DNA of 64,000 nt from Bacteroidales bacterium (GTDB lineage Bacteria > Bacteroidota > Bacteroidia > Bacteroidales > UBA12077): NCBI GenBank assembly GCA_028282585.1, contig JANQHR010000020.1, positions 1-64,000 of the forward strand. The letters are read 5' to 3'. A program made the translations under genes and the position numbers. This document shows, one piece after another, positions 30,933-54,925 of this stretch (positions are counted from its first letter, which is position 1; each line of letters starts with the position of its first letter). The notes under the pieces are model-generated. The model saw nothing but the letters and a program-made list of their open reading frames with translations. It was not told the DNA's origin and ran no database searches.

Positions 30933-31280
30933 ATGGATTTAATTAAAGTTGTTGAAAATGAGTTCGCTGTAAAAAAGGATTTTCCTGAATTTAAAGCTGG
31001 TGATACGGTAACTGTACATTACAAAATTAAAGAAGGAAACAAAGAAAGAGTCCAAAATTACAGAGGCGTTGTTCTTCAAAGAAGAGGATACGGACAAAAC
31101 GAAACTTTTACTGTTAGAAAAATGTCAAGTGGTGTCGGTGTAGAAAGAATTTTCCCTATAAACTCGCCTTTTATTGAAGAAATTGAAGTTAACAAAAGAG
31201 GTAGAGTTAGACGTGCAAGAATTTTCTACCTGCGTAATCTAACTGGTAAAAAAGCAAGAATCAAAGAAAAAAGATTTTAA
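30933..31280 (+). CDS. rplS: 50S ribosomal protein L19
   Basis: [43 protein letters not shown]. Confidence 0.97.
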
Positions 31281-31293
31281 GATATTTTATAAT

Positions 31294-31325
31294 AAAAAAA
31301 CCTCTCATTTTGGGAGGTTTTTTTG
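31294..31325 (+). terminator. rplS intrinsic terminator (possibly bidirectional)
   Basis: A-run, CCTCTCA-TTT-TGGGAGG hairpin, then T-run. Confidence 0.8.
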
Positions 31326-31408
31326 TGTATAATTTCAAATCCGATCCATACTTTCGGATTATTTTTCGAAAGAAAAGAGAAAAGACTTCCAGATGTACAT
31401 ATTTTTTA

Positions 31409-31416
31409 TATATTTG
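31409..31416 (+). promoter_or_regulatory. -7 promoter element of the tRNA
   Basis: TATATTTG ends 10 nt before the tRNA 5' end. Confidence 0.65.
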
Positions 31417-31426
31417 CACGGCTATT

Positions 31427-31499
31427 GAACCTGTAGCATAACGGATAGTGCACCTGACTACGGATCAGGAGGTTGGGGGTTCGAATCCCTCCAGGTTCG
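31427..31499 (+). tRNA. tRNA-Arg (ACG), CCA not encoded
   Basis: Acceptor stem GAACCTG/CAGGTTC, anticodon arm CCTGA-CTACGGA-TCAGG, T-arm GGGGG-TTCGAAT-CCCTC. Confidence 0.95.
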
Positions 31500-31501
31500 C
31501 A

Positions 31502-31759
31502 GAACGGAAGAAGCTTATCATTTTTGATAAGCTTTTTTTATACTTTTTTGGAGGGATGAGAACCGCCAAAGGGGTTCGAACTATTTCATGAGACTCGTTT
31601 ACGAGGCGAGTAATCCCTCCAGGTTCGCAGAACAGAAGAAGCTTATCATTTTTGATAAGCTTTTTTTATACTTTTTTTTGGAGGGATGAGAACCGCCAAA
31701 GGGGTTCGAACTATTTCATGAGACTCGTTTACAAGGCGAGTAATCCCTCCAGGTTCGCA
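31502..31759 (+). repeat. Two tandem tRNA-linked repeat units (128 and 130 bp), each ending in a copy of the tRNA 3' end
   Basis: AATCCCTCCAGGTTCGCA at 31484, 31612 and 31742. The units differ by 2 substitutions and T-tract length. Confidence 0.92.
31511..31539 (+). terminator. tRNA terminator, duplicated in the second repeat unit (~31639-31667)
   Basis: AAGCTTATCA-TTTT-TGATAAGCTT followed by T-run. Confidence 0.8.
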
Positions 31760-52215: not shown

Positions 52216-53580
52216 ATGTTTAATGGTAAAATACTCGTTATAGATGATGATAGAGATATTTTGTTATCAACCAAGGTAGTCTTAAAAAAAGACTTTTCGG
52301 AAATCAAAGCTTTATCAATTCCAGAAGACGTAATTCCTTATATTGAAAAGAGGGTTTTCGATGTAATAATCCTTGATATGAATTTTACTACAGGTGCTAC
52401 CAGTGGTAAAGAAGGTTTAGCATGGTTAAAAAGAATTCTACAAATAGATCCGGATGCTACGGTAATAATGATGACAGCATACGGAGATATCGATCTTGCC
52501 ATTGAATCTATGAAAATTGGTGCTGTAGATTTCGTAGTAAAACCCTGGGACAATAAAAAGCTTTTAGCAACTATTATATCTGCATATAACTTAAGTAAGT
52601 CCAAGCAGGAAATAATTCAATTGAAAAATAAACAACAAACATTAGTTCAGGACATAGACCAATCATATTCGGAAATAATAGGGCAATCAAAAAAAATACA
52701 GGAACTTTTTGGTATAATTAATAAGGTTGCTAGAACTGATGCTAACATACTTATTCTTGGAGAAAATGGAACAGGTAAGGAATTAATTGCAAGAGCTATA
52801 CATCGTCAATCAGAAAGAGCAAATAAATTATTTATAAATGTAGATTTAGGTGCCATTCAGGAGAATTTGTTTGAATCAGAGCTATTTGGCCATATCAAAG
52901 GTTCATTTACCGATGCCAAAGAAGACAGGGCGGGACGATTTGAAGTGGCTCATGAAGGCACCTTATTTTTGGATGAGATAGGAAACCTTTCTATGTCGCT
53001 TCAGTCAAAACTATTAACTGCTATTCAAAAAAAGGAAGTTACACGAGTAGGTTCAAATAAATCAGTTCCTGTTGATATAAGATTAATTTGTGCTACTAAT
53101 ATGCCATTAAAAGAAATGGTCGATAATAATACATTCAGGCAAGATCTTTACTTCAGAGTTAATACCGTTGAAGTTCACATACCTCCATTAAGAGATAGAT
53201 TAGAAGATATACCATTAATTTCATATCATTTCCTGGATATATATAGAAAAAAGTATAAAAAAAATGAAATGAAAATAAGCAGTGAAGCGATAAAAAAACT
53301 TAAAAAATACAGCTGGCCAGGCAATATTAGAGAGTTACAACATATTATTGAAAGAACAGTTATTATGAGTAATGGTAATATATTAAACGCGTCGGATTTT
53401 GTACTAAATATTACCGAAAGGTCATCATTAAATAAGAACATATTAAATTTAGAAGAAGTGGAAAAACAAACCATAGAAAAAGCGTTAAAAAAACACAATT
53501 ATAACGTTAGTGCGGCAGCTAAAGATTTGGGATTGGGAAGAACAACAATGTATCGTAAAATGACAAAATATGGTTTTTAA
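52216..53580 (+). CDS. Sigma54-dependent response regulator (NtrC family)
   Basis: REC domain, GENGTGKE, GSFTDA, LFLDEIG, WPGNIREL, HTH. Start set at ATG 52216. Confidence 0.9.
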   Translation: MFNGKILVIDDDRDILLSTKVVLKKDFSEIKALSIPEDVIPYIEKRVFDVIILDMNFTTGATSGKEGLAWLKRILQIDPDATVIMMTAYGDIDLAIESMKIGAVDFVVKPWDNKKLLATIISAYNLSKSKQEIIQLKNKQQTLVQDIDQSYSEIIGQSKKIQELFGIINKVARTDANILILGENGTGKELIARAIHRQSERANKLFINVDLGAIQENLFESELFGHIKGSFTDAKEDRAGRFEVAHEGTLFLDEIGNLSMSLQSKLLTAIQKKEVTRVGSNKSVPVDIRLICATNMPLKEMVDNNTFRQDLYFRVNTVEVHIPPLRDRLEDIPLISYHFLDIYRKKYKKNEMKISSEAIKKLKKYSWPGNIRELQHIIERTVIMSNGNILNASDFVLNITERSSLNKNILNLEEVEKQTIEKALKKHNYNVSAAAKDLGLGRTTMYRKMTKYGF

Positions 53581-54925
53581 AAATTTCAGGATTGGAGTTA
53601 TATTAAGAGTTTCTTTACTAGGCATATCTATTTTTATTTCGATATATGCTTCATATCAAAACGAATGGTATTTGACCACAACAGTTTCTTCTTTTTTTTC
53701 ACTAGTATTTTTAATTGGAATTATTCGTTATGCTGAAAAGTATAAAAAAAGCTTAAGTGAGTTCTTAATTTCAATTAAATCAAGGGATTTTATTAGTTCT
53801 ACAAATATCTTACCAGATAAAAGTACTCAAGATAAATTAAAGGAGGCTTATCACGTTATCTTAGATGAATTCAAGAATATTCGAATTGATAAAGAGATTC
53901 AATATCATTATTTAAAAACCATTTTTGAACATATCAAAACAGCTCTTCTAAGTTTTAACCAAGATGGTAAAATTGAATTTATAAACAAAACAGCCGCTGA
54001 ATTATTCAATTTAAAAGCAAATCAGGAAATAGATAAAATTAAAAAAATTAACATTACTCTTTATAACACAATCTTAAAGCTCAATTCAGGTGAAAGTGAA
54101 CTTATTAAACTAAAACTTAATGAAGAGTTACTTCATCTGTCAATTTTTGCCTCAGAACTTAAAATACAAAATAAAACCGTTAAGTTAATTTCATTTCAAA
54201 ATATAAAACATCAATTGGAGTACCAAGAATTGGAATCATGGCAAAAACTAATTCGTGTTTTAACACATGAAATTATGAACTCTGTTACTCCAATATCTTC
54301 ATTAAGCAGTGCAATAAACGAATCTTTAGGAAATTTGAATAAAAATCAAGCTGAAATAGCCAATATCTCGGATGACGATTTTGAAGATATGATCTCAAGT
54401 TTAAAAACAATAGAAACCAGGAGTAAAGGATTGTTAAAATTTGTTTCATCCTATAAACAACTAACACGAATTCCAAAACCTGATTTTAAACAAGTAAACC
54501 TTTTTGAGTTAGTTAATCATTCAAAAACACTGTTGAAACAAAAACTAAAAGATATAAACATAAACCTTAAAATCACTTCAGATCAAAAAGAAGTGATTTG
54601 TTTTATAGATTATGACCAAATAGAACAGGTAATTATTAATTTATTGATAAATGCAATTGACGCTGTTAGTGAAAAAGAAAAGCCAGAAATTAAAGTGAAC
54701 ATATCGCAAGATCAATTTAACAAGAGTAAAATAACTATTTTTGACAATGGCAAAGGAATTGAAAATGAAGATATTGATAAAATATTTATTCCATTTTACA
54801 CCACAAAAAAGGAAGGGTCTGGAATTGGTCTAAGCTTATCCAGACAAATCATGAGATTGCATAAGGGAACTATCCAAGTTAATTCTGTTATTAACAAAGG
54901 GACAGAATTTATTTTAGAATTTTAA
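53570..54925 (+). CDS. Sensor histidine kinase
   Basis: WQKLIRVLTHEIMNS, NLLINA, DNGKG, PFYTTK, GSGIGL. Confidence 0.9.
   Translation: MVFKNFRIGVILRVSLLGISIFISIYASYQNEWYLTTTVSSFFSLVFLIGIIRYAEKYKKSLSEFLISIKSRDFISSTNILPDKSTQDKLKEAYHVILDEFKNIRIDKEIQYHYLKTIFEHIKTALLSFNQDGKIEFINKTAAELFNLKANQEIDKIKKINITLYNTILKLNSGESELIKLKLNEELLHLSIFASELKIQNKTVKLISFQNIKHQLEYQELESWQKLIRVLTHEIMNSVTPISSLSSAINESLGNLNKNQAEIANISDDDFEDMISSLKTIETRSKGLLKFVSSYKQLTRIPKPDFKQVNLFELVNHSKTLLKQKLKDININLKITSDQKEVICFIDYDQIEQVIINLLINAIDAVSEKEKPEIKVNISQDQFNKSKITIFDNGKGIENEDIDKIFIPFYTTKKEGSGIGLSLSRQIMRLHKGTIQVNSVINKGTEFILEF

Follow-up and report, generated by a model that had tools for sequence, protein, structure and literature searches.

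Why does a tRNA gene in a Bacteroidales genome have its own 3' end repeated twice more directly downstream? The locus in question lies in a 64,000-nucleotide stretch (NCBI GenBank assembly GCA_028282585.1, contig JANQHR010000020.1, positions 1 to 64,000 of the forward strand), which we call the window throughout, and consists of a tRNA-Arg(ACG) gene followed by two near-identical units that each end in the last letters of that gene. A first-pass annotation of these letters had proposed a non-autonomous mobile or amplifying unit that targets tRNA genes, or else a structured RNA. We found that the units are, judged by their sequence, relatives of the enterobacterial tRNA-linked repeats (TLRs), with clear kinship to those of Escherichia coli tyrT. 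They belong to a patchy but widely spread family in which helices P1, P3 and P4 covary, the 5' module is tailored to the host tRNA, and no protein gene is linked to the copies. We favour, with moderate confidence, the explanation that the locus is a two-copy TLR array of the RtT kind, that is, a tRNA-tailored structured RNA module that is reached by read-through and amplified by unequal recombination.

Two tandem units behind tRNA-Arg(ACG)

The tRNA-Arg(ACG) gene is the sole tRNA gene that ARAGORN predicts in the window, and it matches the Rfam tRNA model at 66.9 bits. The window holds exactly three copies of the 18-mer AATCCCTCCAGGTTCGCA, always on the + strand (31484-31501, 31612-31629 and 31742-31759), and 0 of 100 shuffles contained a match; its first copy comprises the 3' part of the tRNA T-loop, the 3' strand of the T-stem, the 3' strand of the acceptor stem and two extra bases. 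Tandem Repeats Finder delimits a repeat at 31484-31759 with a period of 130, 2.1 copies and 97% matches, which bears out the claim that three 18-mers bound near-identical units of 128 and 130 bp. Between the units, the only differences are two substitutions and two additional T in a T run. Each unit runs from a terminator-like hairpin with its T run, through TGGAGGGATGAGAACC, GGGGTTCGAA and a hairpin-bearing insert of about 30 nt, into the tRNA tail, and both end in the same 18 letters as the tRNA gene; the terminator hairpin, inverted T-arm, GGTTCGA block, insert and tail that had been described for each unit are all present. A consensus scan returned 4 terminator-like sites, compared to 0.6 ± 0.8 in shuffles. 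The anti-T-arm of unit 1 is the reverse complement of the tRNA T-arm except in the loop, where UC is replaced by GA. The features of the locus are as follows.

31427..31500, + strand: tRNA-Arg(ACG), the host gene (ARAGORN; Rfam tRNA)
31484..31501, + strand: repeat R1, the tRNA gene's last 16 letters (from T-loop A58) and 2 letters beyond (exact 18-mer)
31502..31629, + strand: TLR unit 1, 128 bp, with spacer, terminator hairpin, anti-T-arm, core and tRNA tail (52.6 bits with covariance model R1, a score that is not independent, as unit 1 is among the sequences from which the model was built; Rfam RtT 28.5 bits)
31506..31539, + strand: unit 1 terminator-like hairpin, followed by a T run (consensus scan)
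31548..31567, + strand: unit 1 anti-T-arm, UUGGAGGGAU GAGAACC GCC (sequence and family counts)
31548..31622, + strand: unit 1 helix P1, 31548-31557 with 31613-31622, nine standard pairs and one G.U (fold; outer-pair covariation in the family)
31558..31579, + strand: unit 1 helix P2, GAGAACC (31558-31564) with GGUUCGA (31573-31579), tandem G.A/A.G and 5 standard pairs (letters invariant in the family, loop variable)
31588..31611, + strand: unit 1 helix P4, AUGAG...CGAGU (A-U, U.G, G.A, A.G, G-C) enclosing the hairpin CUCG-UUUA-CGAG (closing pair covaries in the family)
31612..31629, + strand: repeat R2, the tail of unit 1 (exact 18-mer)
31630..31759, + strand: TLR unit 2, 130 bp, with parts as in unit 1 (covariance model R1 50.6 bits; Rfam RtT)
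Parts of unit 2, + strand: hairpin 31634-31667, anti-T-arm 31678-31697, P4 31718-31741, tail (repeat R3) 31742-31759, offset from unit 1 by 128 bases up to the T run and by 130 beyond it

Kinship with the TLRs of E. coli

The TLRs of E. coli have been known since 1978 and are still without a function; the part of the source available to us (PMC8144298) also states that E. coli K-12 has 22 of them at ten loci, that the 3' end of a TLR is identical over 18-19 bp to the 3' end of the upstream tRNA or rRNA, and that an early functional claim for the rtT RNA was withdrawn. The window units have the same arrangement. They lie directly 3' of a tRNA gene on the same strand (tRNA to 31500, units from 31502), their 18-mer is the 3' end of that upstream stable RNA, their 2.1 copies, on the assembly alone, fall within the one to five tandem units found per TLR locus, and the helix that closes each unit pairs a 5' arm with the tRNA-derived tail and varies in the family with the host tRNA.

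The likeness extends to the letters. Rfam RtT (RF00391) matches both units along the full model in a permissive 1.2-kb search (28.5 and 28.6 bits, E 0.004), with the letters GGAUGAGAAC and CGAGUAAUCC agreeing in the alignment; an Enterobacter copy scores 128.6 bits with the same model. The core letters in common with the E. coli TLRs are GGAUGAGAA...GGUUCGA...GAGUAAUCC. The 178-bp units of E. coli K-12 tyrV-rttR, which read GGGGAAGGAUGAGAAGC...AAGGUUCGAC...GAGUAAUCCUUCCCCCACCACCA, present their parts in the order seen in the window: a tail-complementary arm, GGAUGAGAA, GGUUCGA, an insert, and GAGUAAUCC running into the tRNA's last 19 letters. Enterobacterial tRNA-linked repeats had been named at first pass as background only; the unit is in fact their sequence relative, which makes it much less novel than was supposed.

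The E. coli class is the broader of the two. The elements rrA, rrB and rrF are TLRs between both terminators of the E. coli rrnA, rrnB and rrnD operons, and in the portion of PMC8144298 at hand the binding of Hfq and CsrA is reported for these three only, the other 19 TLRs scoring below 0.01 in a CsrA predictor. The rrnB TLR of E. coli K-12, which lies between T1 and T2 (locus L186, 4171629-4172059), repeats AACTGCCAGGCATCAAAT of the 5S end. Because it is without GGATGAGAA and GAGTAATCC, what is called a TLR in E. coli takes in more than the core family described here.

Distribution of the family

We scanned a one-genome-per-species collection with the exact pattern GGATGAGAA-N(2-32)-TTCGA-N(25-55)-GAGTAATCC and obtained 132 matches in 111 stretches. 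Within the sequence examined around each match, a tRNA gene lies on the same strand no more than 700 nt upstream of 95 of the 132, and the host tRNAs are of nine kinds (Ser, Val, Arg, Pro, Cys, Thr, Tyr, Lys and Gln). Most copies belong to Bacteroidota and Enterobacterales, the Bacteroidota carriers being Cytophagales (for example Ekhidna, Roseivirga, Marinoscillum and Cecembia), Flavobacteriales, Bacteroidales, Chitinophaga and Sphingobacteriia; a few come from other Gammaproteobacteria, two candidate-phyla groups and one Rickettsiales metagenome-assembled genome. Cultured carriers include Cecembia rubra DSM 28057, Ekhidna lutea DSM 19307, Fulvivirga imtechensis AK7, Roseivirga seohaensis SW-152 and Marinoscillum luteum KCTC 23939. 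About a dozen matches look like chance, having neither a tRNA nor a further motif of the family. The suggested search for a similar architecture behind other tRNAs in Bacteroidales therefore found it there and far beyond. In the literature searched, TLRs are described only for E. coli and its relatives, with the subscription papers (Rudd 1999; Egan and Landy 1978) outside reach.

Covariance model R1, built from 95 scan copies and both window units, found 35 copies in 20 of the 37 genomes of the window's genus. We inspected 21 of these 35 matches, none of them used in building the model: 19 lie behind Ser-tga, Ser-gct, Arg-acg, Arg-tct or Pro-ggg, and one of the remaining two begins at a contig end inside a tRNA. 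In an even sample of the phylum, the model matched 9 of 150 other genomes, and 5 of 89 genera, the window's own among them, had a match. Eight of these nine genomes belong to one family (f41; 8 of its 31 genomes) and are small, at 2.1-2.8 Mb, and one genome of the sample (G134) has up to three matches on a single contig. In an earlier pattern search, 5 of 36 genomes of the genus had copies behind other tRNAs, and the reversed control pattern was matched once; among 24 genomes from the order's other families, none had a copy. No other copy was found in the window's own genome by BLAST, Rfam RtT, the exact pattern or a one-mismatch pattern, the last of which gave two extra matches that look like chance; among its 36 tRNAs, tRNA-Arg(ACG) alone has its end repeated within 600 nt.

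One locus of the genus has an unusual layout. At G013:C10:5663-6109 (L017/L020), two family cores stand 344 bp apart with intervening sequence unlike the usual terminator spacer; in these cores, the first GAGTAATC is internal, and the true end is CGAATAATCCCC.

No protein gene is linked to the family. The largest protein family recurring within 1.5 kb of the copies is common to only 6 of 111 loci, and we saw no small open reading frame of the GIY-YIG kind near the copies at these 111 loci. A small protein gene within the unit, reading from the ATG in GGATGAG to the stop in TGAGTAA (the tpr frame of E. coli), was rejected: the distance from ATG to stop modulo 3 is split 33/38/26 among the copies, and 30 of 97 copies have an internal stop.

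A covarying fold on the tRNA-sense strand

The structure set leaves out 24 of 121 distinct scan cores that are without CA[CT]GA or too near the end of their locus, and alignment A1 also leaves out L075 and L095 as likely chance matches. Helices P2-P4 were read from letter counts beside conserved anchor blocks and then counted on a 97-row alignment; RNAalifold on the raw MAFFT alignment recovered P1 alone. Over the whole structure, 89.6% of cells pair in the 97 sequences compared to 79.9 ± 0.5 in shuffles, and the covariation score of 0.237, versus 0.094, was reached in 0 of 500 shuffles. When partners were slid along this alignment, 19-52% of cells paired.

P1 joins the 5' arm and GGAU with AUCC and the tail. 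Arm and tail pair in 309 of 504 cells (215 ± 9 in shuffles), and the outer pairs change with the host tRNA, with counts of AU 46, GC 14 and CG 11 at one and GC 42, AU 13, CG 10 and UA 9 at another; in one tRNA-Pro copy, AGAU/AUCU replaces GGAU/AUCC. P2 pairs GAGAACC with GGUUCGA through tandem G.A/A.G followed by five standard pairs, around a loop of 2-40 nt. P3 follows directly, and its third pair (UA 43, CG 30, GC 15) is paired in 96% compared to 54% in shuffles. P4 has the form A-C/U-G-A-z ... z'-G-A-G-U, with A-U, then C-G or U.G, then tandem G.A/A.G, then a closing pair that is GU in 41, GC in 38, AU in 9 and CG in 7. P3 is present in Cytophagales-type units, but the window lineage (G000, G025, G012 and G007) is without it, which leaves a three-way junction. 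The closing helix proposed at first pass appears in the RNA fold of unit 1, whose minimum free energy is -30.7 kcal/mol (z-score -2.8). The insert hairpin drawn there as ACTCG/CGAGT is also present, but the family comparison favours drawing it as AUGAG/CGAGU with tandem G.A around CUCG/CGAG. A tandem GA motif has been named in the RtT RNA in a preprint on CaCoFold, in the part of it at hand (bioRxiv 10.1101/2020.02.04.933952).

Throughout the family, G.U pairs are common and A.C pairs rare, and G.A tandems stand on the tRNA-sense strand only, which places the constraint on that strand. The constrained molecule would most simply be an RNA. By eye, many loops of P3 and P4 (L023-L133) are C-GNA-G triloops (GCGAAGC, CCGAAGG, GCGCAGC and GCGUAGC). 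The C-GNA-G triloop is a known motif of very stable DNA mini-hairpins, and the family may have a single-stranded DNA form.

Tailoring of the 5' module to the host tRNA

We next compared the letters that flank the conserved 5' block with the host tRNA; here, and in the counts of pairing inside the fold, we used copies with GGATGAGAACC only, leaving out E. coli-type copies. Pairing between tRNA positions 63-65 and the letter triplet 5' of GGAU was seen in 151 of 216 cells, compared to 90 ± 6 in shuffles; for positions 51-49 and the triplet 3' of GAGAACC, the count was 139 of 216, compared to 87 ± 6.5 (the maximum of 2000 shuffles being 108). The 5' module, made up of the arm, GGAUGAGAACC and the next letters, is thus by its letters antisense to the whole T-arm of the host on both sides of a conserved 11-mer, a property new here, with UC changed to GA in the loop relative to a strict antisense. 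In the window, the 5' side of the anti-T-arm is perfect over ten letters. The claim that the inverted arm follows its host tRNA is therefore upheld by pairing counts across the family, and the check for covariation between arm and tRNA 3' end came out positive.

Positions with G.U in the host T-stem distinguish a complement of one strand from a copy of the other. On the 5' side, the letter is the Watson-Crick complement of the tRNA 3' strand in 26 cases, a copy of the 5' strand in 2 and another letter in 10; on the 3' side, it is the complement of the tRNA 5' strand in 18, a copy of the 3' strand in 10 and another letter in 10. Where the tail and the tRNA differ, 17 positions favour the tail and 18 the tRNA, with the wrong ATCC taken in some tRNA-Pro genes. 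The idea that the arm was formed on a template is compatible with these data, which are also compatible with selection for pairing.

The tailoring does not extend to the GGTTCGA block, which had been described as the 5' half of a split T-arm. Its letters are those of such a half, but the three letters before its GG do not follow the host tRNA: they pair with the tail in 94 of 252 cells compared to 93 expected, and in long-loop copies in 39 compared to 41 expected. The reading that this half was copied from the host is not supported. GGTTCGA is instead a motif of the core, carried by all scanned copies, in which TTCGA was required by the scan pattern and the preceding GG is found in 78 of 84 copies.

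Explanations of the array

We consider it probable, with real room for doubt, that the locus is a two-copy array of TLRs of the RtT kind behind tRNA-Arg(ACG). Each unit combines a copy of the tRNA gene's last 18 letters with an intrinsic terminator and a core of about 75 nt, and the core folds on the tRNA-sense strand into a junction of P1 (5' arm with tail), P2 and P4. By analogy with what is reported for the E. coli TLRs between rrn terminators, the core RNA would be made by read-through of the tRNA terminator, and the tRNA-like tail would supply the 3'-end processing signals of the tRNA. Unequal recombination or slippage, acting between the repeated tRNA ends and often taking in a repeated terminator, would lengthen and shorten the arrays. 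As a guess, the anti-T-arm may have its pairing partner within the unit, in the split T-arm copy, or else in the T-arm of the cognate tRNA while this is nascent or unfolded.

Several observations weigh against this explanation. Neither window unit reaches the Rfam gathering score for RtT (45 bits), and in a search of 40 kb, four other Bacteroidota copies had no RtT match at E <= 1 and none to any other Rfam family; because the RtT model misses these copies, they are unannotated. The letters of P2 are invariant and lend that helix no support by covariation. On the 3' side of the window's anti-T-arm (GCC), only two of the three letters fit the host. A terminator stands between the tRNA and each core, so that expression would need read-through, and contigs of one RNA run give no cover on the units. 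The copy number of two comes from the assembly alone. Inside the proposed fold, the host-matched letters 3' of GAGAACC are unpaired (28 pairs compared to 32.5 expected), and the fold by itself therefore does not explain why they match the host; these letters may be either a record of how the unit was made or a site of pairing with the cognate tRNA or its gene. Lastly, a mobile element would account for the patchy distribution and the clean filled and empty sites described below no less well than a host RNA gene would.

Such an element is the strongest competitor, although we judge it unlikely. The unit would be a non-autonomous mobile DNA mini-element, made of tRNA end, terminator and core, that enters the T-loop or 3' end of tRNA genes in a Campbell-type or guide-directed manner with an enzyme encoded elsewhere, and the anti-T-arm would be a guide that pairs with the target strand. 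Each unit is flanked by direct repeats of the tRNA end. Among 74 first units, 69 begin their identity to the tRNA at one and the same base of the T-loop (AATCC), although AATCC was itself required by the pattern; in many copies the identity extends through the terminator. A crude test for a hairpin and T run between tRNA and core was positive in 42 of 64 first units from outside the Gammaproteobacteria, an undercount by eye, and in 2 of 10 gammaproteobacterial ones. Of 20 relatives, 18 have a terminator directly 3' of the orthologous tRNA-Arg(ACG) and are empty there, and filled sites are found only in G000, G025, G012 and G007, the last three with one unit each. The empty site of G004 equals the distal tail of G025 plus AAAG and the terminator, which makes the insert of G025 a tRNA end, a new terminator and a core. 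The patchiness noted above (20 of 37 genomes of the genus, 9 of 150 others in the phylum sample) would suit such an element. In two of the nine two-locus genomes, the copies behind the two different tRNAs are closer to one another than to any copy elsewhere. The match of the 5' module to the host T-arm, which holds on both sides, is what a guide or a templated copy would show.

Against the mini-element, the gene surveys gave neither a recurring protein family (6 of 111 loci at most) nor a GIY-YIG-like small open reading frame, and no integrase adjoins the window locus. Phage origin was tried and rejected: the only two viral-contig matches have no tRNA nearby, are without the family motifs and look like chance. 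The G.U pairs and G.A tandems indicate a single-stranded sense molecule, most simply RNA. Across related genera, the same tRNA is host to many of the copies, as under vertical descent, and some same-tRNA copies in different genera are close, with core identity up to 0.98. The insert of G012 relative to G019 has a different boundary from that of G025 relative to G004, consisting of core, tail and a second terminator behind the resident terminator; both insert patterns fit recombination over the repeated tRNA end. In addition, the part of PMC8144298 at hand reports no movement of TLRs in E. coli. Of the first-pass proposal, then, a recurrent tRNA-linked unit with a conserved, covarying fold stands, and its mobility is conjectural, the signs of it being circumstantial (patchiness, filled and empty sites, two two-locus genomes).

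A bolder reading of the tailoring, which we think improbable, holds that TLRs are an ancient family of tRNA-specific antisense elements, spread horizontally from Enterobacterales to Bacteroidota and candidate phyla, whose 17-nt anti-T-arm pairs with the T-arm of the cognate tRNA or of its gene. Their RNA or single-stranded DNA would act on nascent, unfolded or unmodified tRNA (as a folding check, in processing or by sequestration), or would guide the copying of the unit itself beside a new tRNA gene. The unit's own split T-arm would then be a built-in competitor, and each anti-T-arm would be matched to both strands of the host T-stem.

The array could also be an assembly artefact in which one real unit, present as two strain variants, was chained during metagenome assembly, an outcome we regard as improbable. 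The genome is a 173-contig assembly, and the units differ at three places only, as strain variants might. In the run that holds 92% of the sampled words, available as contigs only, contigs end at 31472, cover 31469-31536 and 31635-31732, and resume at 31703; none bridges the array, and its middle (31538-31633) is uncovered. For chaining, however, there would have to be reads that run from a tail into the start of a unit, and 18 letters make a short repeat for such a mis-join. Arrays of 2-4 units stand at other TLR loci, complete chromosomes included, and two tandem units are found in G030, G029 and G034 of the window's genus.

Two other runs of the same study, from other samples (X2 and X3), yielded one short contig each (157 and 158 nt) that covers an entire unit, differing from it at 8-10 places, and is placed at window 31484-31641 and 31594-31752, respectively. 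Such a length is about one unit plus k-1, as a tandem repeat or a small circle gives in a de Bruijn graph.

Phage or island integration is usually recognised by a duplicated tRNA 3' end, and the array might on that ground be taken for the attL/attR scar of a lost phage or island once integrated at the 3' end of tRNA-Arg, with the decayed distal tail in G025 in its favour. We hold this to be very improbable: the roughly 110 bp between the repeats are the conserved part, common across phyla and with covarying helices, and this conservation of the core already contradicts a scar. No integrase lies nearby, the units stand in tandem, there is no real copy on a viral contig, and neither a tyrosine or serine recombinase nor cargo was found at the repeats.

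Equally remote is a self-cleaving ribozyme related to the hammerhead. Its letters can be seen in the alignment as GAUGAG - stem - CGAA - A:U stem - U/C, the letters of hammerhead positions 5-9, stem II, 12-14 and 15.1:16.1, and tandem G.A at P2 followed by P3 resembles hammerhead domain 2, but positions 3-4 (CU) are replaced by G-G or n-G that pairs with the tRNA tail, the would-be junction of cleavage site and stem I is taken up by an entire helix, P4, the window copies are without P3, no hammerhead match was found with Rfam in the window (E <= 10) or at five other loci (E <= 1), and the full core of CUGANGA and GAAA with stems I and III at the cleavage site was not found.

The two-copy TLR array thus remains our favoured explanation, and it places a known but unexplained family in a phylum where our literature search found no description of it and where the Rfam model misses copies. 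Finding the same core in Bacteroidota, other Gammaproteobacteria and candidate phyla, together with a fold backed by covariation and a 5' module antisense to the whole T-arm, narrows the question of what TLRs do. The host-matched anti-T-arm offers a concrete experimental handle on TLR function. Unannotated copies, meanwhile, risk being mistaken for integration scars or new elements.

Other features of the locus

The absence of an integrase that had been noted for the window holds at this locus, where the neighbours are ordinary genes: rplS, a GyrI-like protein, an open reading frame without a Pfam match and a SpoIIE/Reg_prop protein. The gene upstream of tRNA-Arg(ACG) is rplS (Pfam Ribosomal_L19, E 6.6e-48).

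30933..31280, + strand: rplS (ribosomal protein L19), context (Pfam)
31292-31326, + strand: the terminator-like hairpin of rplS itself (consensus scan)

The end of rplS lies about 150 bp from tRNA-Arg(ACG) here (31281-31426), compared to about 3 kb on the same contig in most relatives of the genus (spacing compared with G025:C39, G031:C9 and G008:C1); the window's genome seems to be without these 3 kb or to be rearranged there. Letters of the unit terminator hairpin recur exactly elsewhere in the window, 20 of them at 53736-53755 and 17 at 53247-53263, both on the - strand, and these probably belong to a similar terminator and not to a TLR.

Hexamers like those of a sigma-70 promoter (TTATCA, 18 nt, TATACT; 9 of 12 letters) overlap each terminator hairpin at 31515-31544 and 31643-31672 on the + strand, where they would put a transcription start at the anti-T-arm. 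Such matches are no more frequent in the region than in shuffles (5 compared to 3.3 ± 1.8), and a reading by eye did not show the Bacteroidota-type promoter TAnnTTTG.

Comparison with known systems

The window units resemble the attL/attR sites of tyrosine-integrase elements in that the tRNA 3' end is regenerated, a displaced copy lies downstream and the repeated block begins in the T-loop. They differ in that what is repeated here is a conserved non-coding fold of 110 bp, in tandem, without integrase, cargo or phage copies. The likeness to domain 2 of the hammerhead core lies in GAUGAG - stem - CGAA followed by an A:U-closed stem; CU at positions 3-4 and a stem I at the cleavage site are absent, P4 is an extra helix, and there is no covariance-model match.

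The comparison with rrA, rrB and rrF is closer. As in these elements, the core stands 3' of a first terminator, with a second terminator copy beyond it in many Bacteroidota copies, and the 3' end of the upstream stable RNA recurs in the tail. Unlike the family of the window, the E. coli rrnB TLR repeats the 5S end and has neither GGATGAGAA nor GAGTAATCC.

The closest system is that of the E. coli tyrT and tyrV TLRs (RttR/rtT RNA, RF00391). Compared with these, the window core is shorter (63 nt between the outer ends of the motifs, versus about 100), the units have no P3 hairpin and carry an intrinsic terminator inside each unit, the tRNA gene encodes no CCA, its tail ending in genomic CA, and the scores fall below the Rfam gathering threshold in a different phylum. 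In both, however, tandem units lie on the same strand behind a tRNA gene and end in an 18-19-letter tRNA tail, the 5' arm is complementary to that tail, GGAUGAGAA, GGUUCGA and GAGUAAUCC follow in the same order, and the tandem G.A motif is present. The inverted copy of the T-arm is likewise common to both, with GAAGG-AUGAGAA-GCUUC at E. coli tyrT corresponding to the tRNA-Tyr T-stem GAAGG/CCUUC.

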